From positions 255-64,254 of the forward strand of contig CAZFYX010000038.1 in assembly GCA_964523885.1 (NCBI GenBank): a stretch of DNA of 64,000 nt, given 5' to 3'. Positions 28,682 through 41,794 of the stretch are shown here, piece by piece (positions within the stretch are counted from its first letter, which is position 1; each line of letters starts with the position of its first letter). A program made the translations under genes and the position numbers. The notes under the pieces were generated by a model. The model was not told the origin of the DNA. It did no database searches and worked only from the letters and a program-made list of their open reading frames with translations. The stretch is from an uncultured Burkholderiales bacterium (GTDB taxonomy: Bacteria; Pseudomonadota; Gammaproteobacteria; Burkholderiales; SHXO01).

Positions 28682-30025
28682 TCAGAACATCACCGTCGCG
28701 CGCAGCGACAGCACCCACACCCTGTCGTGCGCCGGGTTGAGCGCCGGATCGCCGATGTACTGCACGTCCGGCGCGAACACCAGGCCACCCAGGAAGGTCC
28801 AGTTCCAGTAGGCCTCGACGATGGTCTCGTTGCTGTCCGCCCCGGTGTATCCAGCGGGGCGGCTGAGTCCGACCGCGACGCCGATCTGGTCGGTGGCGCT
28901 GCGATGGAGGGGATCGTTCAGTGCGACGCCCACCGCATACGACGCCTCGATCGAGCCCGTGTTTCCGCTGGCCCCGTTCGCCCGGCCGAACACCGCCCAT
29001 GCGGGGTCGAGGTTCTGCACGGCGTTCAGCGACCAGCCGTGCGCACCGGTCCCCTGCTGTCCCGGATTGTCGTACCAGGTGAGCGAGTACTGGGCGCCGC
29101 CCAGCCCCTTGAACGACGGTGTCCACTGCGCATAACCGAACCATGCCGTGCCCGCCTGGTCGATCGACCGGAGGTGACTGAACGAGGCGTTGTTGGGGGC
29201 TTGCGCGCCGGCGGCGAACTGCAGTGTGCCGCTCGCATTCCACTGCACGAAGCCACCCAGCCCGGCGTCGGCGTACGCCGCGCTGCCGTTCTGCGCGAGC
29301 ACGTAGTTGATGAAGTTGAGCTGCGAGTTGCCCAGGTACTGGTTGGTGTCGAAGTTGAAGACCGGGTACTGGCCGCCTGCCAGCGCGATGGCGCCGCCCG
29401 GCAGCGTCTGCGTGTAGGTCAGTTGCGCGAACTGGTTCTGCGTGTCGGTCCACGCGTTGGGCGGGGTGACGACGCCGAGGGTGGACTGCATGTCGGCGAC
29501 CGTGTGCTGCGTGACGAAGCCGTTGTAGAAGCCGAGCAATTGCGCCGAGCCCGCGCCGAGCGTGGGGCTGCTGAACATGTTCCAGTCGAGCGAGACCTGG
29601 CCCAGCACGCTGGGTGCGGGCCGGCCGCCGTCCGGCGTGCCCGACTGCTGCATGAAGGTCGCGTCCACCGACCACTGCAACCCGGTGTCCTTCTGGAAGC
29701 CGGTCTTGAAGCGCGAGTACGCGCCGTAGAGATCGTCGATGTCCTGGTAGAGGCTGTGCCGCCGGGCTGCCCGGGCAATCGCCTGCTGGGCAAAGCCGGT
29801 TCCGCCGGCCGCCGTCGCGCTCGCGGCCGGCGGACCTGGCGCCCCGTCGCTCTGCGCGAAGGCGCGGAGGGACGGGGTCAGCAGGCTGCAGCACGTCGCA
29901 AGGAGCGCTGCGTAGCCGCATGCAACGACACCTCCCTGAGGTCGGGGTGAGCGGTGCAGCAAGCGTGCGCTGGACGTGGCGAGAGCGCCGGCGCCCAGGC
30001 GCGCGGCTGCCGCGAAGGCGGGCAT
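28682..30025 (-). CDS. OprB-family carbohydrate-selective porin-like protein
   Basis: The C-terminal signature ...EAYWNWTFLGGLVFAPDVQYIGDPALNP...LRATVMF is typical of OprB porins. The signal-peptide core is ALLATCCSLLTPSLRAFA-QS. The start is uncertain (ATG 30025 gives a long leader; TTG 29962 is possible). Confidence 0.6.
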   Translation of the reverse strand: MPAFAAAARLGAGALATSSARLLHRSPRPQGGVVACGYAALLATCCSLLTPSLRAFAQSDGAPGPPAASATAAGGTGFAQQAIARAARRHSLYQDIDDLYGAYSRFKTGFQKDTGLQWSVDATFMQQSGTPDGGRPAPSVLGQVSLDWNMFSSPTLGAGSAQLLGFYNGFVTQHTVADMQSTLGVVTPPNAWTDTQNQFAQLTYTQTLPGGAIALAGGQYPVFNFDTNQYLGNSQLNFINYVLAQNGSAAYADAGLGGFVQWNASGTLQFAAGAQAPNNASFSHLRSIDQAGTAWFGYAQWTPSFKGLGGAQYSLTWYDNPGQQGTGAHGWSLNAVQNLDPAWAVFGRANGASGNTGSIEASYAVGVALNDPLHRSATDQIGVAVGLSRPAGYTGADSNETIVEAYWNWTFLGGLVFAPDVQYIGDPALNPAHDRVWVLSLRATVMF

Positions 30026-30222
30026 GCGGACGTAATGCAGCGGATGACGGTCCCCCATTTTAGCGGCGAGGCAGCATCCGTATGGTCCTTTCTCGCGGCC
30101 ATCTCCGGGGACGGGGCCCGAGCGCGCACGGCACGGCAGTTGCTTTTCACGTTTCGTCGAGATTCGACGGGAGGCTCCGAGCGGATCTGCACCATCGTCG
30201 CACGATGCCGTTACAGGAACAC

Positions 30223-31041
30223 ATGGGCACCGTCATCGCGTTTCGCCGTCCGCCACACTGGCTCACGCACTACGAGCGCGGCCAGGTGCGCTCGATCGCG
30301 GCCTGGAAGGCGGCCCGGCCCGGCGCGTACGAGAGCTTCGTGCGCGGCCTCACCCGCCCGCTCGCCGAGAACGTGCATACGCTCCTCAAGCCCTCCGTGG
30401 TGCGCGTGTTCGGCGATCTGCTGGAGTACCTCAACAGCCGCTTCGCGCGCGACCACGACCTGACCCGGGACGCGGGCATCCGCGGCGCGGGCATCCTCGA
30501 CATCGAAAGCCTGTCACAGAAGCCGCTGGAGGTGGCCGACGCTGTCGCGGACTACGTGATTGCCGATGCGCGCAGCCGCGCGGTGGCGGCGGGCGCGGCG
30601 AGCGGCCTGGCCACCCCGGTGGCCCTGGCGCTGGGCATCCCCGCGGCATTCAGCGCCGCCTTGCGCGCAAGCCATCGGGTGGCGCAGGCCTACGGGTGCT
30701 CCGGCGAAGCCCAGTCCGATCGCGCCATGGTGCTGCAGGTACTGGCCCTGTCCCTGGCAGTGACGCGTGCGGAACGCACCCGGGCGATGCAGGACTACCG
30801 GCGCCAGCTCGAGCACGCGTTCGTCAACTCCGCGGTCGACGAGATCATCCAGATCATCATCGAGCGCACCGTCGTGCGGCTGCAGCTGGGGAGCGCTGTG
30901 CCCGGCCTCGGCGTCCTGATCAGCGCCCGCGTCCACGGCCGCTTCGTCGAGCGCGCCGCCGTATGCGCCAAGCGCGTGTTCCAGGAACGTTGGCTGCGCA
31001 CGCGCGGCAAGGTGGACTGGATCGAGCCTCGCGCCGCCTAG
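30223..31041 (+). CDS. EcsC-family protein, paralogue 1
   Basis: 272 aa. It has the EcsC-like pattern (ADYVIADARSRAV...HRVAQAYG...VFQERWLRTRGKV) and is about half identical by eye to 32295..33134. Confidence 0.6.
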   Translation: MGTVIAFRRPPHWLTHYERGQVRSIAAWKAARPGAYESFVRGLTRPLAENVHTLLKPSVVRVFGDLLEYLNSRFARDHDLTRDAGIRGAGILDIESLSQKPLEVADAVADYVIADARSRAVAAGAASGLATPVALALGIPAAFSAALRASHRVAQAYGCSGEAQSDRAMVLQVLALSLAVTRAERTRAMQDYRRQLEHAFVNSAVDEIIQIIIERTVVRLQLGSAVPGLGVLISARVHGRFVERAAVCAKRVFQERWLRTRGKVDWIEPRAA

Positions 31042-31208: not shown

Positions 31209-31502
31209 ATGCCCGAGTACCGTATCTTCCAGTCCGTCTCCGTCGAGCTGTTCGAGCGCTTCCAGGCGCTCGGTCGCACCTACGACGTCATGTATGACCC
31301 GCCCTCCGGGCCCAACGGATATGCGCACGCCAGGACCCCGCTGGGGATCTGCAAGGTCGCGTTTGCGCTCGATGCGGAGAAGTCGCAACTCACGCTGGTG
31401 ATCTGCGAGAAGCCGATGCTCGTGCCCGCCAACAAGGTCTGGCAGGTGCTCGGGGACGCGATCGACGATTGCCGGGCGCAGGACGGCGCAACAGCGCGCT
31501 GA
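31209..31502 (+). CDS. Hypothetical small protein (97 aa), no recognised family
   Basis: GC3-rich codon pattern throughout and an ATG start. No obvious SD. It sits between EcsC paralogue 1 and the 260-aa gene. Confidence 0.5.
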   Translation: MPEYRIFQSVSVELFERFQALGRTYDVMYDPPSGPNGYAHARTPLGICKVAFALDAEKSQLTLVICEKPMLVPANKVWQVLGDAIDDCRAQDGATAR

Positions 31503-31515
31503 CGCGGGTCCCCAC

Positions 31516-32298
31516 GTGACCGCGGTGTTTCGCCAGCAGGCCCTGGCGCGCTGGCCCCGCTTCGCAGCGGCACTCGATGCACACTTCCCTGGCGCGATCG
31601 AGCTCACCGACTACGTGACCCGGTCCGCACGGGCGCTTGGGCGGCATGGTTTCGGCGACGCCAACACGCTGGGCGTCGTGGTCACCTGCCGTGACGAGAT
31701 CGCCACGCCCCTGCACACCCAGGTGATGCAGGCCTGGGGCAAGACCTTCGATGGCCGCAGCCTTGCCGGCTTCCTCTCCATGGGGGCGACCGGCATCGAC
31801 GCCGCGCTGTCGCATGCCCCCGTCGTCGACGGCCACGCGCGCTTCGCGCTCTATGCGATGCCGCACATCGCGATCTCCGAGGACGGCGTGATCGGCAACG
31901 TCTATCGCGAGAGCCTGCAGCAGGTCTCGCACGCGTGCGGCTCGCTGGCCGGCGTGCTGCACCAGCTGGAGGCGGGGCACGCGCGCCGCGTGATCGACCT
32001 GGACGACATCGAGCAGAGCCTGGTGAAGGGCCTGCTTCTGACCGCCCTGCGGCACGGCGAGGCGCGCGACCTCCTGGCGGTGACGCAGCTCGCTGGCCGG
32101 CTGATCACCGAGGATGTGGGACGCCTGGTCCTGGCCGCCGACCCGGCGCGGTACAGCTACGCGGTGTTCACCGGGGTGCTCGTGCACGGTCCTGGTGACG
32201 TTCACTGGGTCCACCCGCTGCATGCGTACGCGCGCGGTGTCGCCGTGGGCACCGGGACCGCCCACCTGACCGACCTGCACCTCGCGGTCGCGCGTTAG
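31516..32298 (+). CDS. Hypothetical 260-aa soluble protein with a Cys...His...Cys pattern (possible beta-CA-like/LCIB-like fold)
   Basis: GTG start 13 nt after the previous stop and GC3-rich codons. Candidate ligands: VVVTCRDEI, MPHIAISEDG, QVSHACGSL. Confidence 0.55.
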   Translation: MTAVFRQQALARWPRFAAALDAHFPGAIELTDYVTRSARALGRHGFGDANTLGVVVTCRDEIATPLHTQVMQAWGKTFDGRSLAGFLSMGATGIDAALSHAPVVDGHARFALYAMPHIAISEDGVIGNVYRESLQQVSHACGSLAGVLHQLEAGHARRVIDLDDIEQSLVKGLLLTALRHGEARDLLAVTQLAGRLITEDVGRLVLAADPARYSYAVFTGVLVHGPGDVHWVHPLHAYARGVAVGTGTAHLTDLHLAVAR

Positions 32299-33134
32299 CG
32301 CGCCCCGGGCGCGATCCACGCGACCTTGCCGCGGTCGCGCAGCCAGCGTTCCTGGAACACGTGCTTCGCTGCCACCGCCGCCTTCTCGACGAAGCGCGCG
32401 TGCAGGTAGGCGTTCATCAGTACGCCTGCGGCCGGCACTGCGGTGCCGAGCTGCACCCGGACGACGATGCGGCGCAGGAGCGCCGAGGCCGTATCCTCCA
32501 CCATCGAGCCCACCATGCCGTCCGCGAGCGCGACCTGGCAGTCGCGCAGTGCCCGTTCGTGGTCGCGGCGCGACACCGCCAGCGAGAGCGCCAGCGTCTG
32601 CAGCGCCAGGCGGCGGTCGACCGCCGTGTCGCCCGGGTAGCCATAGGCCTGCGCGACACGATGGATCGCGCGCAGCGCTGCGTCGAGCGCGACGGGCACG
32701 CCAACGGCGAGTGCGGTGGGCGAGGTGAATCCGGTCAGGGCGCCGGCCTTCACCGCGCGGCTGCGCGCATCGGCGATCACGTAGTCGGCCAGCACGTCGG
32801 CGTACTCGAGCGGGCGGCCGGCGAGGTCCTGCAGGGACGTGATGCCGGCCCGGCGCAGGCGCGCATCGCGGAGGATGCTGTCGCGCTCGGCGGTCCGCGC
32901 TGCCATGCGCTCGAGCACCGCATTCACCAGCCTGCCGATGGAGGGGCGCAGCGCCCGCTGCATGCCCCGTGTCACGGGGGCGGTCCAGCCCTGGAGGAAG
33001 CGCGCGAGCGCACCGGCCGGTGCGCCTTTCCACGCGGCGATCAGGCGCACCTGCTGGCGCTCGTAGCGCGACAGCGGCTGCGGCGGATGCACCCGTGAGA
33101 AGGGGAGGATGGTTCCTGGCGCGGTCGTTTCCAT
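32295..33134 (-). CDS. EcsC-family protein, paralogue 2 (last gene of the ATPase operon)
   Basis: 279 aa. ATG at 33132-33134. It shares the blocks ADYVIADARSRAV, HRVAQAYG and VFQERWLRDRGKV with paralogue 1. Its stop overlaps the stop of the convergent 31516..32298 gene. Confidence 0.6.
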   Translation of the reverse strand: METTAPGTILPFSRVHPPQPLSRYERQQVRLIAAWKGAPAGALARFLQGWTAPVTRGMQRALRPSIGRLVNAVLERMAARTAERDSILRDARLRRAGITSLQDLAGRPLEYADVLADYVIADARSRAVKAGALTGFTSPTALAVGVPVALDAALRAIHRVAQAYGYPGDTAVDRRLALQTLALSLAVSRRDHERALRDCQVALADGMVGSMVEDTASALLRRIVVRVQLGTAVPAAGVLMNAYLHARFVEKAAVAAKHVFQERWLRDRGKVAWIAPGAR

Positions 33135-33162
33135 GCACCACCTCGAAGCGTGCGGGTGCCCG

Positions 33163-33564
33163 CTACCCGTCGCGACGGCGATCGAGCGGCGGATAGCGCC
33201 GGTCGAGGTCGTCGAGTAGGCGGTTGATCTGGCGCAGCGCGGTGTGGATCGGGCGCGGCGCATGGCCGCGCTGCCACTTCTCCAGCTTGACGCGACCGGC
33301 CTTGGTCCGCGCGAGCAGGCCGATCAGGAGGATCGGCGCACCCAGGATGCCGGGGATGGCCAGCCCGATCAGGCCGGCCATGATAAGCGTGTTGCTGGTG
33401 CCGCGTGAGAGACGCTCCACGCGCTCGATGACGTACGCGTCCTCCTGCACTTCCAGCGCTTCGGCGGTGGCGGCGGTCACCGGCAGCAGTCGCGGATCGG
33501 GCCGGCCGAGGGGCGCGGGGAGCGGAACGACGCGGGTCTCGGTACTGTCTGGATTCTGGGTCAT
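33163..33564 (-). CDS. Small membrane protein (133 aa, central hydrophobic hairpin)
   Basis: ATG start 21 nt after the stop of the degenerate ATPase. The hydrophobic core is TLIMAGLIGLAIPGILGAPILLIGLLA. Confidence 0.55.
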   Translation of the reverse strand: MTQNPDSTETRVVPLPAPLGRPDPRLLPVTAATAEALEVQEDAYVIERVERLSRGTSNTLIMAGLIGLAIPGILGAPILLIGLLARTKAGRVKLEKWQRGHAPRPIHTALRQINRLLDDLDRRYPPLDRRRDG

Positions 33565-33585: not shown

Positions 33586-35967
33586 TCAGTCGGCAAGCGT
33601 GCTGGCGCGGTGTCGACCGGGATCGGGGACGGGGAGGGTTGCGGCGCCGGGCTGTACCCGCAGCGCTTGCAGGGCGCGCTTGGCGCGCTTGTATACGGCG
33701 AGCGTGCCGGCGTTGCTTGCCAGCACCACGGCAAGGCCGTTGAAGCCGAGCACGAACACGCCGGCGACGCAGAAGAGGTTGTAGCCGAGCACGGTGCGGC
33801 GCGTGCTCTTCAGGCGGTCGGCGTGCTCGCGTGCGCTGTGCAGGATCCCGGGCAGCGGGCGCAGGCGGCGGCCGAGGATCACGAAGTCGGCCGGGTTGCG
33901 CTCGACCGGCAGTGCGCCATCCAGTGCGATGGAGACGGCAGCGCTGCCGGCCAGCGGCAGCCCGTCGCAGTCGCCGACCACCGCGGCGTTGACGCCACGG
34001 CGGCGCAACCCCTCCATGAAGCGCACCTTGGTCGGTGCGGTCATGTCGCCGCTCGCGAGCCGGATGCCCAGTGCGTCGGCCAGCTTGCGGGTCTGCGCCT
34101 CGGGACGCTGGGAGATCAGGAACACCTCGACGCCGGCGTTGCGCAAGGCCGCGATCGTGGCCCTGGCTTCCGGCGGACCGCTGCGCCGGAAGCCGACGCG
34201 CGCGACTTCGACGCCGTCGATCTCGACGCGCAGCGCCGGCGGGGTGCGCTCCATCCCGGCAGGCCGGCCAAGCAGCGTGATGCGCTGGCCGTTGTTCTCC
34301 ACGGTGACCGCTTCCGCCTCCAGGCTCACCAGCGGCATCCGCGCTGGCTGCAGGCCCTGCGCGAGGCAGGCCTTCACCAGGGCCTCGGCGCGCTCGTCGC
34401 CGAGGTACAGCGCGGCCGAGGCGATGTGGGGGAGCAGGACGTGGGTGTCGAGCGCGCCGCGCGGCTTGATCCCTGCGACCTCCACCGCGGGCTCGTGCAG
34501 GTCGGCGTGATCGTCGATCACGACCATCGAGATCGCGCCGAGCGCCTGCAGCGCGGTGGGGTTGCGCACCAGCACGCCGGACTGCAGCAGTGTCCCGGCC
34601 TGATGCATCGCGCCCAGCGAAGCAGCCAGGGCCAGCCCGTTGGCATAGTCCGGGCGCAGGAGTGCGGAGGCGGTGGCCAGGTCACCCACCAGCAGCCCTA
34701 CGCCGGCGGTGGCCATGGTCGGCGCCACCGCGCCGTTGGCGAAGCGCTCGGCGCCTTCGTGCAGCGCGAGCCTGCGCGCGCTCGGCCGCGTCGCGTGCTC
34801 GAATGCGCGGCCGACCTGTGCACGCCATGCGTCGTCGCCGGTGCGCAGCACCTCGACCGTGATCGCCCCTTCGTACACCAGGCTGCCCGCCACGACGTCC
34901 GCGCCGGCCACCTTGCGGATCCAGGGGTTGGGCGCGGTGAGCGGCGGCTCGCGCACCAGTGCGCTGCCGTCCACCACCTTGCCATCGCCGGGCACCAGCT
35001 CGCCGGCGGCGACCCGTACGCGCGCACCGACCAGCGCTTCCCCGGTCACTGCAACCTCGCGCTCGGTATCCTCCAGATGCAAGGGCATCACCTGGTCCAA
35101 CAGGCCGTGGCCCTCGAGCGTGAGATCCTCGCGGTAGCGCTGCTCCCAGTAGCGGAAGCACCACAGCATGAGCGCCGCCGACAGGAACTGGCCGGTGCCG
35201 AGCGTCGCCACGATGATCGCCGTGTACAACAGCGGCAAGCCGGTCCGGCCCTGGGTCAGCTGGCGGCCGCCGGCACGCAGGATGTCGAGGTTGGCGACCA
35301 CCAGCAGACCGGCCGACAGCGGCGTGAGCGGCGCCAGCACGAGCTCGGCGGCGGCCAGGCCGACCGAGACGTTGGCGAGGCGGAAGTCCACCTGCGCCAT
35401 CGGCGGTGCGACCGCCAGGGCGATGGCGCGCTCCGCGATCCGCAGCACGCACTCGGCATCGAGGCTCGCGGGATCGAAGCGGATATCCATCCCGCGCACC
35501 AGCTTGCTGGCATGGGCACTCGCGATTCCGGGCACCGCCCGCAGGGCGGTCTGCGCCCGGCCCGTCGCGGCCTTGTCGTGCCCGAGGGCGCGGTGCCCGA
35601 TGAACAGATGCCCGGGCGCGACGTGCAGGCGTTCGGCGGTCGAGACCAGGGGCCCGTGCCGGTACAGCGTGACGACTTTGGCGCCGCTCCATGCCGGCAT
35701 GCGCTCACGGGGCAACCCGGTGCCGCGACCCTCGATCAGCCCGGCCAGCCCCTCCGTGAACGCTGCGCGCGCGCTCGCGCGCACGGCATAGCGGACGTGT
35801 GCAGCGCCCCGGTCGAGGTCGAGGCGGACGCTGCTCACCTCCGGACAGGCCAGCAGCCGGCGGGCAAGAGCGTCGGCGAGCGCGGGTCCCTGCGCGGAGC
35901 ACAGGCGGGGGTCGCGGATGCGCATGGCGTCGCGCTCGATGGCGACCTGGGGATGTTGGCCCTGCAT
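33586..35967 (-). CDS. Full-length P-type-ATPase paralogue with all catalytic motifs degenerate (predicted non-catalytic pseudo-ATPase)
   Basis: It is collinear with the 37546..40188 ATPase, but TGES is replaced by TAPN (34927-34938), DKTGT by DDHAD (34501-34515), SGD by SQR and GDGINDS by GDCDGLP. The ORF is intact over 793 codons, and 19 of 20 codons checked around DDHAD end in G/C. Confidence 0.7.
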   Translation of the reverse strand: MQGQHPQVAIERDAMRIRDPRLCSAQGPALADALARRLLACPEVSSVRLDLDRGAAHVRYAVRASARAAFTEGLAGLIEGRGTGLPRERMPAWSGAKVVTLYRHGPLVSTAERLHVAPGHLFIGHRALGHDKAATGRAQTALRAVPGIASAHASKLVRGMDIRFDPASLDAECVLRIAERAIALAVAPPMAQVDFRLANVSVGLAAAELVLAPLTPLSAGLLVVANLDILRAGGRQLTQGRTGLPLLYTAIIVATLGTGQFLSAALMLWCFRYWEQRYREDLTLEGHGLLDQVMPLHLEDTEREVAVTGEALVGARVRVAAGELVPGDGKVVDGSALVREPPLTAPNPWIRKVAGADVVAGSLVYEGAITVEVLRTGDDAWRAQVGRAFEHATRPSARRLALHEGAERFANGAVAPTMATAGVGLLVGDLATASALLRPDYANGLALAASLGAMHQAGTLLQSGVLVRNPTALQALGAISMVVIDDHADLHEPAVEVAGIKPRGALDTHVLLPHIASAALYLGDERAEALVKACLAQGLQPARMPLVSLEAEAVTVENNGQRITLLGRPAGMERTPPALRVEIDGVEVARVGFRRSGPPEARATIAALRNAGVEVFLISQRPEAQTRKLADALGIRLASGDMTAPTKVRFMEGLRRRGVNAAVVGDCDGLPLAGSAAVSIALDGALPVERNPADFVILGRRLRPLPGILHSAREHADRLKSTRRTVLGYNLFCVAGVFVLGFNGLAVVLASNAGTLAVYKRAKRALQALRVQPGAATLPVPDPGRHRASTLAD

Positions 35968-35994
35968 GGGGAGCGAGTGGTCGGGTGCGCGCGC

Positions 35995-36465
35995 TCAGCG
36001 CGCGGTGCGCTGGATCTCGATCGCCTCGCGGGCGCGCCCGGAGAGGCGGCCGGCGAGGGACTTGGCGTTCCGGTGCATGGCGATGAGGTTGAGGAATTCG
36101 CGCATGGCCGCTTCGGCTTCCTCGCGATCCTTCACCAGACCCAGGTGCAGGCGGAACCCATGCACCTGGTCGCGCTGCTTCTGCGCCGCGGCGGTCAGGT
36201 CGTGGACGATGACCACCGGCTCCTTCGTGGCGAGCACGCGGTCCTGCGCGGCCATCGCCTGCGACTGCTCGACGCTCAGCAGGAACAGCGGGTCGCCGGC
36301 CTGCAGGGCGTTGAGCTCGCCCAGGTGGGCATGCAGCACTTCGCTGGGGAGCGGCCTGGTGCGGGTGTCGACGACGTAGATGCGCAGCCGCGGCTGGGCC
36401 TTCGCCGGGTCGGACCAGCTCTCATTCGCGGCAACGAGCGTGTCCCGAGCGGCGTTGTCGTTCAC
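35995..36465 (-). CDS. Soluble protein of unrecognised family (156 aa), paralogue of the C-terminal domain of 36715..37485
   Basis: GTG start with GGAG 6 nt upstream. Shared blocks: PRLRIYVVDT / PRFKIFVVDT, VHDL, HGFRLHLGL / HGFRIHLGL, EF...I..HR. Confidence 0.6.
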   Translation of the reverse strand: MNDNAARDTLVAANESWSDPAKAQPRLRIYVVDTRTRPLPSEVLHAHLGELNALQAGDPLFLLSVEQSQAMAAQDRVLATKEPVVIVHDLTAAAQKQRDQVHGFRLHLGLVKDREEAEAAMREFLNLIAMHRNAKSLAGRLSGRAREAIEIQRTAR

Positions 36466-36483
36466 CCGGGACTCCGCATGCGG

Positions 36484-36681
36484 TCAGGATGCAGCCACGT
36501 ACGGCTGCAGCAGGCCTTCGGCGGCCATGTCCTCCAGCCGGGCGACCAGCGGATACTCCTCGCGGCCGAGCACCTGGTAGAGGTCGCGCAGCCGGCGGAT
36601 GCGCCGATAAATCTCGAAGGCCGTATAGGCGACCACGAGGGCGCCGAACACCATCGTCAGGATATCAGCCGTACGATCCAT
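36484..36681 (-). CDS. Small single-pass membrane protein (65 aa)
   Basis: ATG with GGAGGA 8 nt upstream. N-terminal TM segment (ILTMVFGALVVAYTAF) followed by a basic helix (EIYRRIRRLRDLY). It is tightly packed between the two paralogous genes (33-nt and 18-nt gaps). Confidence 0.55.
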   Translation of the reverse strand: MDRTADILTMVFGALVVAYTAFEIYRRIRRLRDLYQVLGREEYPLVARLEDMAAEGLLQPYVAAS

Positions 36682-36714
36682 GCCATGTCCTCCGGGTCCG
36701 CGCGTCCTGCCGGC

Positions 36715-37485
36715 TCAAATCTTCGCCAACAGGGCGATTGTATCCCTTAATCCCGCGCGCCTCAGCCGCTTCTGGACGTCGCGCTCGAGGGTGTTGGAGT
36801 CGCGGTGCAGGGTGATGAAGCGGGTGAATTCCTGCAGCATGTCCAGGGCGTGGGCGGGCGTGTTGGCCAGGCCGAGGTGGATGCGGAACCCGTGGAACTG
36901 CGGCCTGCCGGGACGGCTCTTCACCGCGAGGTCGTGGACACAGATCAACGGGTCCTTGCCGATCAGGGTGCGGTCCAGCTGGATGAAGTCGATAGACTGC
37001 GCGGGGCTGAGCACGAAGATCTGGTCCTCCGGCGCCAGCTTGGCGATCAGGCCGAAGTTGTCGCGCACGACCTGGCTGGCGGGGGAATGCCAGCCGGTGT
37101 CGACCACGAAGATCTTGAAGCGTGGCCCGGTCCTTCTGGCGGCGGCAGGCGCAGCGGCCACTGCAGGCACCGATGCCGCGGGGACCTGGTGCAAGGGTGA
37201 CACGTTCCCGGTCTGGGTCATGGGATGCTCCGGCGATAGCTCATGCGCAGGCGCAGCGGGCTCGTGCCCGTCCTGCGCTGCGTGCCCGGCGACCGCGACG
37301 TCGGCGGACGTGCCCGCCAACACGTCGAATTCCGTTCCGGCGGGGTGCGACACCTCGACGACATACGCCTCGACGGCGTCGAGGTGCGGACCGTCGAATG
37401 CAATCACGCTCTTCTGCGGGCTCCGTCGCCGTCCGTTGGCCAATGGCGGCGCATCCCTGCGCTTGCCGCGGCGCTTCTCGCTCAT
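36715..37485 (-). CDS. Protein of unrecognised family (256 aa): disordered basic/Ala-Pro-rich N-terminus plus a C-terminal domain paralogous to 35995..36465
   Basis: ATG at 37483-37485 with GGAGGAG 8 nt upstream. The C-terminal ~135 aa align by eye to the 156-aa protein at roughly one third to 40 percent identity. Confidence 0.6.
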   Translation of the reverse strand: MSEKRRGKRRDAPPLANGRRRSPQKSVIAFDGPHLDAVEAYVVEVSHPAGTEFDVLAGTSADVAVAGHAAQDGHEPAAPAHELSPEHPMTQTGNVSPLHQVPAASVPAVAAAPAAARRTGPRFKIFVVDTGWHSPASQVVRDNFGLIAKLAPEDQIFVLSPAQSIDFIQLDRTLIGKDPLICVHDLAVKSRPGRPQFHGFRIHLGLANTPAHALDMLQEFTRFITLHRDSNTLERDVQKRLRRAGLRDTIALLAKI

Positions 37486-37545
37486 CACCACATCTCCTCC
37501 ACGCGCAGCGGCACGGGACGCAGTCTCGCTACCTGCCGACCGCGA

Positions 37546-40188
37546 TCACGCCGCGGCTGCCACATCCGCCGTCCCGAAGCCAGCCGGATCGGCCTTGCGC
37601 TCCGCCCTCGCCGGGGCGGGCAGGGCCGGCGTCACCTGCGGTCGGCCCGGCACGAGCTCGTTGACCTGCGCGTTCAGGCCCGCGCTGCGCAGCTCCAGCT
37701 CCAGCCGGTGACGGCGCGCCGCCTCGTGCTGCGCGACCTTGCGCATCGGCCACACGCCGTTGGCGAGCGCCGCCAGGGCGGCGACATTGTTGGCGAGCAC
37801 CGAGGCGCCCACGCCGAAGCCCAGGGTGAACACGCCGGCCATGCACAGGGCGTTGGGCAGGATGATCATTCCCCAGCTGCGACGGATGTTGTGCTCGAGC
37901 GCCGTGGCGATGTCGCGCAGCTCGCACAGCTTGCCCAGGCCCTGCTCCATGAACACGATGTGCGCGGTGTCGGTGGCAATCGAGGTCGCGCCGCGCAGCG
38001 AGATCGCCACGTTGGCTTTCTTCAGCGCGATCGAGTCGTTGATGCCGTCGCCGACGAAGCAGACCTTGCGGCCTTCGGCCTGCAGCCTGGCGACGTATTC
38101 CGCCTTGTCCGCCGGCAGCACCTGAGCGAAGTAGCGGTCCATGCCGAGCTGCTCGGCGAGCTTGCGGGTGGGCGCCTCGTGGTCGCCGGAGATAATGGCG
38201 ATGTGCTTGATGCCGCGCTTGCGCAGACCGGCGATGATCTCGACCACCTCCGGGCGCACCGAGGCGCGCAGCTCCAGCGCGCCGCCGAGTGCACCGTCGA
38301 CCGCGACCATGACCATGGTGTGGCCCTCGCGGTGCGCCTCGTCCAGCGCGGCGGCGACGTCCGGCGGAACCGCGATGCCTTCCATGTCCATGAAGCGCGG
38401 GCTGCCCACCTTGATCGTGTGGCCGCCCACCCCCACGGTGATGCCGTACCCGACGCTGTACTGCGTCTCGTCGGTCGCCTGCAGCCTGAGGCCGGCTTCC
38501 TCGGCCTTGTGCAGGATCGCGAGCGCGATGGGATGGTGGAACTTGGCCTCGGCGGCGGCGGCGAAGCCCAGGATCTGCATGCCGTCGAAACCGTTGCAGG
38601 CGACGATGCGACCTACCTCGGGGCGCTCGCGGGTGAGGGTGCCGGTCTTGTCGAACAGGATCGTGTCCACGCTGTGCATGAGCTCCAGCGCGCGGCCGTC
38701 CTTCACCAGGATGCCGCGCTGCGCGCACAGGGCCAGCGAGGACAGCATCGCCAGCGGCGCGGCCATGCGGATGCCGGTGCCCAGGTCGCAGTTGAGGATG
38801 GCGACCGCACCGTTGGGGCCCATGGTGCCCATCGCCAGCGCACCGATCGCCAGGGTGGGGATGACCGCCTTGTCGGCCAGCTGCTCGCCCTTCTGCTGGG
38901 TGGCCATCTTGTAGCCGGCGGTGTCGTTCAGGATCTGCGCGATGCGCGCCGAGGCGGTGTCGCTGCCGGCCTTCTCGACCGACACGTAGACCTTGCCGGC
39001 GACCAGGATGGTGGAGGCGAAGACACGCTCGCCCACGCCCTTCTCCGCCGGCGTGGATTCGCCCGTGAGCGCGTGCTGGTCGACCATGGCCATGCCTTCG
39101 ACCACCACGCCGTCCACCGGCACCATGTCGCCGGTGTGTACCGCCACCACGTCGCCGGCATTGAGCTTGTCCAGGCTGACCTGGGTCTCCACGCCGTCGC
39201 GCACCAGCCACACGAAGCGCGGCTGCTTGCCGAATGCGCCGAGCAGCATGCGCTTGGAGTTGTCCTCGGTGCGCTTGACCAGCATGCGCCCGAACGACAG
39301 GCACCAGGCCAGCACCGCACCGGGGAAAATCTGCAGGGTGGACAGGCATCCGATCACCACGATCGAATCGAGCACGTCCACGCCGAGCCGACGCTCCTTG
39401 AACAACACGTCGTACGCGTTGCGGAAGCTGGGGATTGCGGTGTAGGCGAACAGTGCGGCCGACACCGGCAGCAGCGGTGGCGCTGCGAACTGCGCGAACG
39501 CGGCGAGCGGCAGCGAGCCGGTGCAGATCGCGAGGTGCAGGTCGAGCTTGTCGAGCTGGGTCGGATGCTCCGCGCTGGCCAGCGCGGCGTCGAGCACCTC
39601 CATGAGCTGCGCGACGTCGAGGATGCGCGGATCGTAGTCGATCTGCACCGCGCAGCTGATCGAGCTGCTCTTGAAGCGGTCCACGCCGTGCAGGGCCATC
39701 AGCTCGCGGTCGATGGCGTCGCACAGCGCCTGCTTGCGGTAGAGGACCGGATTCTTCAGGTGGACCGTGCCCAGCCGCCGGCGGGTGATCTGCCAGCCGG
39801 TCACCACGTGCCCGTAGCGGTGATAGTGCGCCACGCCGTGACGGTCGCGCACGCTGGACACCGGGGCGATCTGCGGCGGGCGCAACTCGACGGGCTGCCC
39901 CTCGCGAGTCCCGGCTTCGGCCGGCAGCAGCGGATCGGCATGCGTCATGACCGCGGCCAGGCGACCGAGCACATCGGCCAGCAGGCTGCGGGAGGGGTCG
40001 AAGCGCAACTGCGCCGCGGGGCGCCTGCCCTGGCCGATGGTTGCGCCCGACAAGTCGGTGGCGTGGAACGCGCGCTCCAGGAATCGCCGGCACAGGTCGC
40101 CCGCCGGGTCGGAGAACAGCGTCGCGCTGTGGATGTCGATGACGCCGGCGCGTGGGAAGGACAGCGCGACGTCGATGGTCGGTTCCAT
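37546..40188 (-). CDS. P-type ATPase, P1B-like architecture but lacking a CPx-type transmembrane motif and CxxC metal-binding domains
   Basis: TGES (39055-39066), DKTGT (38638-38652, verified codon by codon), FHHPIA, SGD and GDGINDS are all present. The membrane helix before the P-domain reads ILNCDLGTGIRMAAP (NCD at 38785-38793). The ATG at 40188 is preferred; the TTG at 40212 is an alternative. Confidence 0.8.
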   Translation of the reverse strand: MEPTIDVALSFPRAGVIDIHSATLFSDPAGDLCRRFLERAFHATDLSGATIGQGRRPAAQLRFDPSRSLLADVLGRLAAVMTHADPLLPAEAGTREGQPVELRPPQIAPVSSVRDRHGVAHYHRYGHVVTGWQITRRRLGTVHLKNPVLYRKQALCDAIDRELMALHGVDRFKSSSISCAVQIDYDPRILDVAQLMEVLDAALASAEHPTQLDKLDLHLAICTGSLPLAAFAQFAAPPLLPVSAALFAYTAIPSFRNAYDVLFKERRLGVDVLDSIVVIGCLSTLQIFPGAVLAWCLSFGRMLVKRTEDNSKRMLLGAFGKQPRFVWLVRDGVETQVSLDKLNAGDVVAVHTGDMVPVDGVVVEGMAMVDQHALTGESTPAEKGVGERVFASTILVAGKVYVSVEKAGSDTASARIAQILNDTAGYKMATQQKGEQLADKAVIPTLAIGALAMGTMGPNGAVAILNCDLGTGIRMAAPLAMLSSLALCAQRGILVKDGRALELMHSVDTILFDKTGTLTRERPEVGRIVACNGFDGMQILGFAAAAEAKFHHPIALAILHKAEEAGLRLQATDETQYSVGYGITVGVGGHTIKVGSPRFMDMEGIAVPPDVAAALDEAHREGHTMVMVAVDGALGGALELRASVRPEVVEIIAGLRKRGIKHIAIISGDHEAPTRKLAEQLGMDRYFAQVLPADKAEYVARLQAEGRKVCFVGDGINDSIALKKANVAISLRGATSIATDTAHIVFMEQGLGKLCELRDIATALEHNIRRSWGMIILPNALCMAGVFTLGFGVGASVLANNVAALAALANGVWPMRKVAQHEAARRHRLELELRSAGLNAQVNELVPGRPQVTPALPAPARAERKADPAGFGTADVAAAA

Positions 40189-40285
40189 GGGACTCAAGTC
40201 GTACCTCGGCAAGCGTTCTCGTCACGCACCGGCGGTGCGTTGCCCGGCCCGCGGACGCTCGCCCGCGGGCTGGCGCACTGCAGGG

Positions 40286-40645
40286 TCAGTGGCCGGACGC
40301 GTCCTCGACCGGCGCCGCGTACTCGCCGATGCCCTTGGCCTCGTTCACCGCGTCGATTGCCGCGCTCGCACCGTCCTTCAGGCCGCGCACGAAGGGGTTC
40401 TCCTGCGGGACGGACTTGGCGATGAAGACCGCGGCATAGACCAGTCCGTAGGAGATCATGTAGGAGCCGGTGTAGGCGGCCCGCGAAGCGGCGTTGGCGA
40501 TCTCGGGCCCGGCGTTGCCGAGCTTGGCGCGCAGGCTGGCTGCGTCGTTGGTGGCCGCACTGGCCGCCTTGCGCATGGCGTCGGCCACGGCGGACAGGGG
40601 ATCGGACCCGGCGGCTTCGGGGGCGGCGGCTTCGGCGCTCGACAT
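40286..40645 (-). CDS. Small Ala-rich membrane-anchored protein (119 aa), first gene of the ATPase operon
   Basis: ATG at 40643-40645 with a strong AAGGAGAAA SD. One hydrophobic segment (YMISYGLVYAAVFIA) is flanked by Ala-rich helices. Confidence 0.6.
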   Translation of the reverse strand: MSSAEAAAPEAAGSDPLSAVADAMRKAASAATNDAASLRAKLGNAGPEIANAASRAAYTGSYMISYGLVYAAVFIAKSVPQENPFVRGLKDGASAAIDAVNEAKGIGEYAAPVEDASGH

Positions 40646-40896
40646 GATGCTTTCTCCTTGATTCGTTGGGCTGACCCCATGCGGCCCGGGTGCCGGGCTC
40701 GCGTGGCGCATGGTAAGCATTACCTGATCGCCTACCCTACACCCCCAATACGGCTCAGGTCATGGGCAAATCTCGACAGGTTGGTGCATGCCACCGTCCA
40801 AGGCCGGGATTCGATCCGCTGCCATGACATTAGGCTGAGTGCCGCGGACGCATTTGATCCAGCGCAGATGTTCATGCCGGAGCCTGCGCGTGCACG

Positions 40897-41592
40897 TCAG
40901 ACCAGGTTCGACAGGGCATTGACCACCAGGCCCAGGATCAGGACCACGAAGAAGAACGACAGGACGGCGTGGACCAGGGTCAGCCGCCGCATGGTCCAGC
41001 CGGTGACGGACACGTCCGAGGTCTGGTAGCACATGGCGATGGTGAACGAGTAGTACATGAAATCCCAGTAGTCCGGGGTGTCCCGCTCCGGGAAGTCGAG
41101 TCCGCGGCGGTATTCCCGCTTGCCCGCCAGGACATGGTCGTCGTAGTACAGCCGCATGTAGTACAGCCCGACGAACAGGTTGAACAGCACCCAGGACAGC
41201 GCCACCGCCAGCATCGACATCACCTGGTGCAGGTTGCTCACCCACGCGGGCCAGCCCTTTACCGGCTCGAGCATGAAGATGACGCCGACGATGCTGGTGG
41301 CCACGACCACCGACGCCGTGATGACCGCGCGCAGCCCGCTCGGCTCCCCCTCGCTGGCCATGACCGCGCATTCCTCGGGCTCCACGGTGGTGAAGCGGAA
41401 GGCGCTCAGCGCGAGGTAGGCCAGGGTTCCGAGGTTGAAGGCCAGCACCAGGCGGGTGCTGACGGGGAGGGCTGCCGCGGCGAAGTACGCGACGACCGTC
41501 AGCACCAGCGCAAGGGCCAGGCTCGCAAGCGGGGATGCGAAGGCGGCACCCGGCGCGGGGTGCGACATCTTGTCGCGGTCAGCCTTGTTCAT
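40897..41592 (-). CDS. DUF1345-like integral membrane protein
   Basis: Multi-pass hydrophobic profile with the characteristic DYWDFMYYSFTIAMCYQTSDV block. ATG at 41590-41592. Confidence 0.6.
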   Translation of the reverse strand: MNKADRDKMSHPAPGAAFASPLASLALALVLTVVAYFAAAALPVSTRLVLAFNLGTLAYLALSAFRFTTVEPEECAVMASEGEPSGLRAVITASVVVATSIVGVIFMLEPVKGWPAWVSNLHQVMSMLAVALSWVLFNLFVGLYYMRLYYDDHVLAGKREYRRGLDFPERDTPDYWDFMYYSFTIAMCYQTSDVSVTGWTMRRLTLVHAVLSFFFVVLILGLVVNALSNLV

Positions 41593-41794
41593 CGTGTCCT
41601 TGTCCCGGCCGTCGGTGCCGACGCCGGGTCTGCGCAACCGTTGCGTGCCCTGCCTGGAAAACCGCACCGCACACTATGCCGTCGTGCTGCGGAGGAGTCA
41701 TTGGCACTTCTTGACAGCTCGCGCACCGCGCGGTGCAGTGCGGGAACGAGAACCAGAGCCAACCGGGCGCCGCCATGCCACAATCCCGCCCCGC

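Follow-up and report, generated by a model that had tools for sequence, protein, structure and literature searches.

What do two small soluble proteins of unrecognised family do when their genes lie between those of two P-type ATPases? The question is raised by a stretch of 64,000 nucleotides (nt) from contig CAZFYX010000038.1 of an uncultured Burkholderiales bacterium, called the window below. In it, the genes for two such proteins, here X-A and X-B, enclose that of a short membrane peptide, pep65, and are themselves enclosed by the genes for ATPase1 and ATPase2 (Table 1). Our analysis suggests that X-A and X-B belong to an undescribed family (X) with a predicted thioredoxin fold and without conserved cysteines, and that both probably assist the pump as subunits of a new type. 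More specifically, and with a probability that we put at about 0.55, X and its peptide would form a dyad, tethered to the membrane, that serves without redox chemistry as an accessory module of a P-type pump with several subunits, in cation or pH homeostasis. What the analysis shows directly is the paralogy of the two proteins, their fold class, the lack of conserved cysteines, the linkage of X to the peptide and to ATPase1, and the degeneracy of ATPase2.

Seven consecutive genes on the minus strand, up144, ATPase1, X-A, pep65, X-B, ATPase2 and mem133, are separated by gaps of only 18–73 nt. A GGAGG-like Shine-Dalgarno site lies 5' of the starts of X-A, pep65 and X-B (GGAGGAG, about 9 nt 5' of the X-A ATG), and the spacers between these three genes measure 33 nt and 18 nt. 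A preliminary description, made by reading the sequence, had reported two such genes bracketing a 65-residue membrane peptide, with good Shine-Dalgarno sites and 18–33-nt spacers, all of which was borne out. Its placing of each X gene immediately downstream of one ATPase was not: X-B precedes ATPase2 by 27 nt, so that the two ATPases enclose both X genes. For X-A a GTG start at 37491 is also open, giving a 258-residue reading; in public metagenome contigs with an identical X-B protein, the gene calls are likewise 256, 65, 156 and 793 residues. A scan with consensus sequences found no promoter-like site, and the sole terminator-like site fell inside the DUF1345 gene, outside the seven genes; this fits a single operon, although in DNA of 70% G+C it is weak evidence. 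X-A, pep65 and X-B share one reading frame, with single stops and short spacers between them, which is probably coincidence. Long antisense open reading frames (ORFs) over the ATPase genes, among them 33610–36750 (+) and 37243–40425 (+) of 1046 and 1060 residues, are a product of the high G+C content and not genes.

X-B aligned with the C-terminal part of X-A over 127 residues without a gap (36% identity, expectation value (E) 1e-25, BLASTP). Because of this alignment, and because all five motif blocks from which a shared C-terminal region of about 135 residues had been proposed lie within it, the paralogy is real. The family had been called unrecognised, and it remained so: X-A, X-B, pep65, up144 and mem133 had no match in Pfam, NCBIfam or PADLOC, for 74 family members the Pfam matches were scattered and due to chance (no thioredoxin- or KaiB-type model at E <= 0.1), and the X profile had no significant match among PDB sequences, the best being a chance-level 'DTSGR' in SRP54 (E 0.87). 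A defence system was set aside, PADLOC having returned no match. Relatives of X were nevertheless found: an exhaustive HMMER search of 1.84 billion cluster representatives recovered 198 proteins at E <= 1e-3, 140 of them at E <= 1e-10. A word-indexed search of 5.8 billion proteins returned only three relatives for X-B and none for the 258-residue reading of X-A, whose low-complexity tail probably swamped the candidates; the same problem kept an alignment search to 12 matches.

The X domain was C-terminal in all 198 family members (about residues 120–245 in X-A), preceded by nothing, by a variable tail of up to about 150 residues or, in six long proteins, by some 200–290 extra residues. The tails are rich in Ala, Ser, Pro, Glu and Arg, and 25 of 64 carry at least six Arg or Lys in their first 30 residues; that of X-A, which is Arg-rich at its extreme N-terminus, is of the same kind (MSEKRRGKRRDAPPLANGRRRSPQK). 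A twin-arginine translocation (Tat) signal was considered for such tails and rejected, since on inspection no hydrophobic h-region follows the Arg-rich start. The six long proteins (P0081, P0088, P0121, P0151, P0157 and P0158, all on short contigs) form a sub-family in which X is fused to a conserved N-terminal domain of about 200–230 residues; that domain had no Pfam match, and a PDB sequence search with P0121 returned nothing.

AlphaFold2 models built with the X family alignment gave both paralogues the same predicted architecture, with scores above 90 in the core on the confidence scale given next. For X-B the mean predicted local distance difference test score (pLDDT) was 80 and the predicted template modelling score (pTM) 0.73; block means over residues 21–130 were 76–97, mostly above 89, and the termini were disordered. 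For X-A the corresponding values were 72 and 0.58, with block means of 84–96 over residues 121–240. Its N-terminus, to about residue 100 or 110, had essentially no secondary structure in the model and a pLDDT of 43–55 (residues 1–100), in keeping with the disorder proposed for it earlier. Both models follow the order β1-α1-β2-α2-β3-β4-α3 plus C-terminal helices, which is the thioredoxin topology (in X-B, by DSSP, strands at 27–32, 60–62, 84–89 and 101–107 and helices at 38–54, 65–81 and 114–131; X-A has the same order). When the models were compared with the PDB by Foldseek, the top 50 matches of both paralogues were all thioredoxin-fold proteins (E 0.008–0.3; template modelling (TM) scores 0.4–0.6). 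X-B matched best to the b' domain of PDILT, which is non-catalytic (E 0.0077, probability 0.98, TM 0.38–0.48), with thioredoxins, the N-terminal domain of SasA and fold-switched KaiB next; X-A matched best to KaiB of Legionella (E 0.031; TM 0.52, on the target), ahead of thioredoxins, a thioredoxin-like subunit of complex I, PA1234 and PDILT b'. A thioredoxin fold class is thus supported by the models, with no close relative. The preliminary description had wavered between a thioredoxin/KaiB-like and a flavodoxin-like fold; the former impression stands, and the latter is contradicted by both the model topology and the fold matches.

In the 74-sequence alignment the sole invariant residue was Pro83 (X-B numbering), in the motif G-x-D-P, and D33, G35, W36, L63, S68, G80, D82, G103, L108 and G109 were near-invariant; the consensus reads RFxIFxIDSGW ... 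DPxYVL ... QS ... LIGxDPI ... HGFRLxLGL ... LHxEGxxGAIEI. Pro83 sits directly before β3, at the position of the thioredoxin cis-Pro loop, and the D-S/T-G-W loop occupies, after β1, the place of the thioredoxin CxxC; D33, G35, W36, D82, P83 and G109 all fall in loops that we read as the thioredoxin active-site face. The redox motif of thioredoxins and glutaredoxins, a CxxC or CxxS at the start of helix α1, was absent. X-B has no cysteine, X-A has a single non-conserved one in β3, and at the CxxC position the family consensus has no cysteine, reading D-S/T-G-W-x-S-x-A, in keeping with the earlier remark on missing redox cysteines. The likeness of 'GWNSPA' to 'WCGPC' is eye-catching, an impression to which the profile comparison by hhalign lent no significance.

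The peptide, too, belongs to a conserved family. Its gene lay within 300 nt downstream of X for 81 of 90 X genes, and the 43 distinct peptide sequences share a layout of short N-terminus, one hydrophobic helix (e.g. SALALGYLVY), EID-RRRRKL and an acidic helical tail (DVFDVLDADDA..ITARLEDMVASGELQPY); in pep65 the N-terminal hydrophobic helix is followed by RRIRRLR and a tail of the same kind. Median charge was +4 in the juxtamembrane stretch and -6 in the C-terminal tail. By the positive-inside rule, the basic juxtamembrane stretch would place the C-terminus in the cytoplasm. At the level of the gene, the peptide resembles KdpF, sarcolipin and FXYD proteins in having one transmembrane helix and in being encoded with a pump.

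The two ATPases are paralogues (22–27% identity) of very different condition. ATPase1 scored 404.6 bits against TIGR01525, the NCBIfam model of heavy-metal P-type ATPases (cutoff 346), keeps TGES, DKTGT and GDGINDxxALKKA in every lineage aligned, and is 67–74% identical among orthologues across phyla. Its transmembrane helix 4 reads D-L-G-T-G...AAPL and helix 6 N-N (NNVAA). None of the Cys/Pro metal sites of helix 4 (CPC, SPC, CPH, PCP) was present; the canonical thiol metal site is absent, because CPC of Archaeoglobus fulgidus CopA aligns to L-G-T within D-(L/M)-G-T-G, and (L/M)GT is conserved in the orthologues. ATPase2 scored 123 against the same model. In the orthologues aligned (the window and L001, L005, L007, L008 and L009, handles for related loci), TGES and GDGxND were lost in six of six and the nucleotide-binding region was shortened; DKTGT has become DDH(A/E)(D/A) in most, DDHAD in the window, and EDHEE and DDNEA in two. 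Helix 4 reads DY(A/S)T(A/G) and helix 6 SNxGT, and in our reading of the alignment the window copy is the most degenerate in helix 4 (ASLGAM in place of APLET). On these alignments ATPase2 is a conserved pseudo-enzyme, kept beside its intact paralogue across Acidobacteria and Alphaproteobacteria. The N-terminal 220–270 residues or so of both ATPases look by eye like degenerate βαββαβ domains of HMA type without CxxC; Pfam returned no HMA match there.

A metagenome scan yielded 306 relatives, from which 80 loci, mostly from soils, were fetched and the window proteins mapped onto them with tblastn; a scan of 185,579 species genomes, with a pattern taken from a 4-sequence alignment (the 74-sequence alignment having no conserved stretch), found the X family in two Stellaceae genomes, Terracidiphilus, and Acidobacteriaceae and Acidobacteriales genomes. 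The recurrent order was up144 (single or duplicated, immediately ahead of ATPase1), ATPase1, X, peptide, an optional second X and peptide, ATPase2, mem133 and small97, and it was the same in the Acidobacteriaceae, Terracidiphilus and Stellaceae genomes. ATPase1 lay directly upstream of X in 40 of the 49 loci with enough upstream sequence; the co-occurrence with P-type ATPases for which the preliminary description had asked is strong. The commonest variant combines a single X-peptide unit with both ATPases; Acidobacteria also have clusters of two units and two ATPases, and a single unit is followed directly by mem133, without ATPase2, in L045, L053, L078, L081 and L084, or by DUF1345 in L028, L064 and L066. 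Where ATPase2 is absent, mem133 directly follows the peptide. X copy number thus does not correlate with ATPase number; what is repeated is X together with its peptide, in one or two copies whether a cluster has one ATPase or two, and not one X partner for each ATPase as had been implied. Few X genes in the data set lack a peptide gene of their own, and the window holds one of them.

Table 1. Genes of the X cluster and its neighbours, positions as numbered in the window (strand + or -)
Feature	Position	Strand	Description
X-A	36715-37485	-	256 residues from ATG; disordered N-terminal tail and C-terminal thioredoxin-fold domain (predicted)
pep65	36484-36681	-	65 residues, single-pass membrane peptide; conserved peptide family directly 3' of X genes
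X-B	35995-36465	-	156 residues; divergent, fast-evolving X-A paralogue, same predicted fold, no peptide gene of its own
ATPase1	37546-40212	-	888 residues; active-looking P1B-like P-type ATPase
ATPase2	33586-35967	-	793 residues; catalytically degenerate ATPase1 paralogue
up144	40286-40720	-	small protein, conserved hydrophobic segment Y-[ST]-G-S-Y...Y-G-[LV]-V-Y-A-A-V-F
mem133	33163-33564	-	small membrane protein; two-helix hairpin by reading
small97	31209-31502	+	small soluble protein; after mem133 in related loci, here moved to the opposite strand
LCIB-type β-carbonic anhydrase	31516-32298	+	PF18599, E 7.5e-50; adjoins small97
DUF1345 membrane protein	40897-41667	-	recurrent cluster neighbour
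OprB-family outer-membrane porin	28682-30058	-	recurrent neighbour

X-B sits on a long branch of the X family tree, and in X-B and its 84%-identical orthologue P0002 the family D-S/T-G-W is replaced by DTRTR (in X-B, DTRTRPLP), whereas X-A keeps D-T-G-W. The window and L090, a closely related contig of metagenomic origin, share 100% DNA identity over the 3' end of X-A and most of pep65; from about position 36580 the identity drops to about 85% across X-B and into ATPase2. Over this comparison pep65 shows synonymous changes only, and X-B is 84% identical in protein sequence with a ratio of non-synonymous to synonymous substitution rates (dN/dS) of 0.26. This suggests either that X-B is constrained but evolving much faster than its neighbours, or that a recombination junction has given the downstream region a different history.

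For the physical contacts, the regulatory role and the nature of the ion substrate, we infer the following working. The system would comprise an active P1B-like pump without a thiol site, usually a dead paralogue of it, and three further small proteins. The peptide would cross the membrane with its C-terminus inside, and its acidic cytosolic tail would hold X, through the basic disordered tail or the surface of the latter, at the membrane beside the pump. There X may bind a protein or a cation through its thioredoxin active-site face (the D-S/T-G-W loop and the Pro loop before β3) without redox chemistry, and this binding would regulate or assemble the pump. X-B would be a relaxed, degenerate copy sharing the single peptide. 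An extended version, which we regard as speculative and rather unlikely, is a heteromeric machine in which the active pump and its dead paralogue (as ion path or scaffold) are gated by X and peptide as a tethered, His-rich thioredoxin-fold sensor, coupling cation handling to pH and carbonate together with a carbonic anhydrase and an exchanger, possibly around a ferrosome-like store.

Several observations weigh against the accessory-module reading. Patterns from close relatives were used to find the loci, many of which are near-duplicates from related soil samples; because of this, linkage counts overstate the number of independent observations, which is closer to a dozen clades of the tree than to 80. 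The fold matches are weak, no Foldseek E value reaching 1e-3 (best 0.0077), and hhalign comparisons of X with E. coli TrxA and Synechococcus elongatus KaiB, both reference sequences entered by hand, gave probabilities below 1%. One X sub-family is fused to a different domain of about 230 residues. Finally, the ATPase was absent in 9 of the 49 loci, which fall into two clades plus the remote L004. In members of the first clade and in L083 the peptide gene is frameshifted or its basic cluster lost; in the L072/L074/L076 group of the second, no peptide gene was detected. The clade of ATPase-less X genes whose peptide gene is frameshifted or has RRRRKL changed to RRWWE takes in L041–L044, L051, L055, L059–L061, L069, L079 and L083. 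L059 has kept an island of DUF1345, exchanger, porin and up144 from which ATPase1 is gone. Because their peptide genes are frameshifted, altered or missing, these ATPase-less X copies look like relics in decaying clusters. In L004 no ATPase is visible before the contig end, and a recognisable peptide still follows X; X and peptide thus persist there, as they do where ATPase2 is absent. This most remote X-peptide pair (L004, 7500–10850) lies downstream of a gene resembling MscS-type channels, by eye and with apparent frameshifts.

How do other explanations compare? One in which X is a redox-active oxidoreductase of thioredoxin or glutaredoxin type serving the pump can claim the thioredoxin-like topology and nothing else; because no family cysteine stands at the CxxC position, X-B having none at all and X-A a single non-conserved one in β3, the sequence excludes such a role, and we give it practically no chance. 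The principal competitor makes X a soluble cation chaperone or cation/pH sensor with Asp and His ligands, delivering an ion to ATPase1 or gating it, in the manner of CopZ with CopA or ArsD with ArsA; the ion would be a hard or borderline divalent cation (Ca2+, Mn2+, Fe2+) or the proton. The X domain is indeed His-rich (median 9 His in about 140 residues), with His common in the VHD and HGFRLHLGL blocks, Asp 33 and 82 are conserved, helix 4 of the pump offers no Cys ligands and the peptide tail is strongly acidic. Like ArsD and CopZ, X is a small soluble protein encoded beside a transport ATPase, and ArsD, a known ATPase metallochaperone, has a thioredoxin-like fold. ArsD and CopZ bind metal through cysteines, however, and X conserves none; it has no HMA or ArsD match in Pfam, and neither family appeared among the top 50 fold matches. 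Moreover, the more distant X members do not share most of the His positions, and purifying selection still acts on X-B although its conserved loop is gone. On balance we consider chaperoning or sensing unlikely, albeit the strongest of the alternatives.

That X and peptide are an independent small stress or membrane module, hitch-hiking in the island with no direct role in pumping, is suggested by the lineages that keep X (with a peptide remnant) without ATPase1, by the remote member adjoining an MscS-like channel gene and by the fused sub-family. Against this, X lies inside an operon between two ATPase genes with spacers of 18–60 nt, its position is kept across phyla while flanking genes shuffle, and the ATPase-less copies have the appearance of relics; we hold such a module to be improbable, more so than chaperoning. 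More improbable again is a remote analogy to ferrosome (fez) clusters, by which the cluster would build or load an intracellular, membrane-bounded store of mineral or ions, with X as an Arg-rich organelle factor. The P1B-6 ATPases of fez clusters carry the transmembrane signatures D[Y/F]SCA and HNxxT, and the clusters encode in some cases a second divergent P1B-ATPase, as well as small hydrophobic proteins, a two-helix membrane protein and a soluble 'chaperone-like' protein; the soluble proteins have N-terminal R-rich motifs and the companion proteins a hydrophobic region with GxxxG (preprint 10.1101/2020.01.10.902569). The X cluster, too, has a second, divergent ATPase and small proteins, both hydrophobic and soluble, and Arg/Lys-rich N-termini occur in X-A and 25 of 64 relatives; its pump likewise has no classical N-terminal metal-binding domain, DY(A/S)T(A/G) and SNxGT of ATPase2 resemble the P1B-6 signatures, and a carbonic anhydrase and Ca2+/H+ exchanger are nearby. 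ATPase2, however, has other residues in place of the signature Cys and His (DYATA, SNxGT), ATPase1 has D(L/M)GTG and NNVAA, and thus neither carries the P1B-6 motif. Six helices are reported for FezB, whereas both ATPases here have eight in our reading of the alignment, with long N-terminal domains that are not Arg-rich. No GxxxG was seen in the consensus of the peptide, of up144 or of mem133. Iron genes are absent from the surroundings, and whereas fez occurs mostly in anaerobes, the X cluster is carried by Acidobacteria and Alphaproteobacteria of soil.

Two further sets of known systems offer analogies for the accessory-module reading. Non-catalytic thioredoxin-fold modules (b' of protein disulfide isomerase (PDI) and PDILT, KaiB, the N-terminal domain of SasA, NDUFA2 of complex I) lack CxxC and act by binding partners, not by redox chemistry. 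They share the β-α-β-α-β-β-α core with X and were its best Foldseek matches. X differs in having no detectable sequence or profile similarity to them, motifs of its own (D-S/T-G-W, G-x-D-P, HGFRLxLGL), extra C-terminal helices, a disordered basic tail and, as partners, a P-type ATPase and a membrane peptide; in contrast to KaiB, no kaiC was found beside X in the surveyed loci (tblastn), the neighbours being ATPase1, the peptide, ATPase2 and small membrane proteins. In P-type ATPases with accessory subunits (KdpF and KdpC; sarcolipin, phospholamban, FXYD), too, a pump is accompanied by a short peptide that crosses the membrane once and by a small additional protein, and in KdpFABC the pump works with a non-pumping membrane partner, the channel-like KdpA. 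There is no sequence relationship to these either, and the partner here is a dead P-type ATPase instead. No P-type pump is known to us to have a subunit with a thioredoxin fold, and literature searches found no thioredoxin-like P-type ATPase subunit, no dead P1B paralogue and no cluster of carbonic anhydrase, exchanger and P-type ATPase.

The wider neighbourhood bears on what the pump might move. ORFs of 14 long loci were clustered to find recurrent neighbours, three of which were then counted by tblastn over all loci: a Ca2+/H+-type exchanger (CAX) of the Na_Ca_ex family in 15 loci, the OprB porin in 13 and a β-carbonic anhydrase (PF00484, Pro_CA) in 11. DUF1345 occurred in 9 of the 14 long loci, from which no unassigned conserved neighbour emerged. 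Such neighbours suggest an island for cation and pH homeostasis in bacteria of acid soils; to judge from the names of samples and isolates, the habitats may be peat and forest soils. At the window cluster the PF00484 enzyme is missing and the unrelated LCIB-type enzyme (PF18599), found in no other surveyed locus, stands in its stead, an apparent non-orthologous replacement. With two carbonic anhydrase families at the same island, CO2, bicarbonate and proton chemistry is therefore argued to be part of the function. A second carbonic anhydrase of the window, PF00484-like by tblastn (6010–6582), lies 30 kb from the cluster and is 33% identical to the L009 enzyme. Two EcsC-family genes (PF12787) in opposite orientation, 30082–31041 (+) and 32295–33263 (-), flank small97 and the LCIB-type gene, one of them overlapping the 3' end of mem133 by about 100 nt; none was found in related loci, and the pair looks like an insertion or rearrangement specific to the window. 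For small97, the PDB held no sequence relative.

Few transporters have been studied as thoroughly as the P-type ATPases, but to our knowledge only a small number of bacterial ones have dedicated subunits, KdpFABC being the main case. The thioredoxin fold and the idea of accessory subunits for P-type pumps are already familiar; what appears to be new is the X family and the type of subunit that it would represent, and neither the family nor its gene cluster was described in the libraries and literature searched. The cluster offers a new thioredoxin-fold family without conserved cysteines, a new conserved family of single-pass peptides and a conserved pair of active and dead ATPases, all in one operon common to Acidobacteria and Alphaproteobacteria of acid soil and peat. 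If X and peptide are real subunits, they would represent a new mode of regulating or assembling a P-type pump, and ATPase2 a rare pseudo-enzyme partner for one. The recurrent carbonic anhydrases, from two unrelated families, and the Ca2+/H+ exchanger suggest a link to the handling of pH, inorganic carbon or calcium in bacteria that dominate acid soils and whose physiology is poorly understood.

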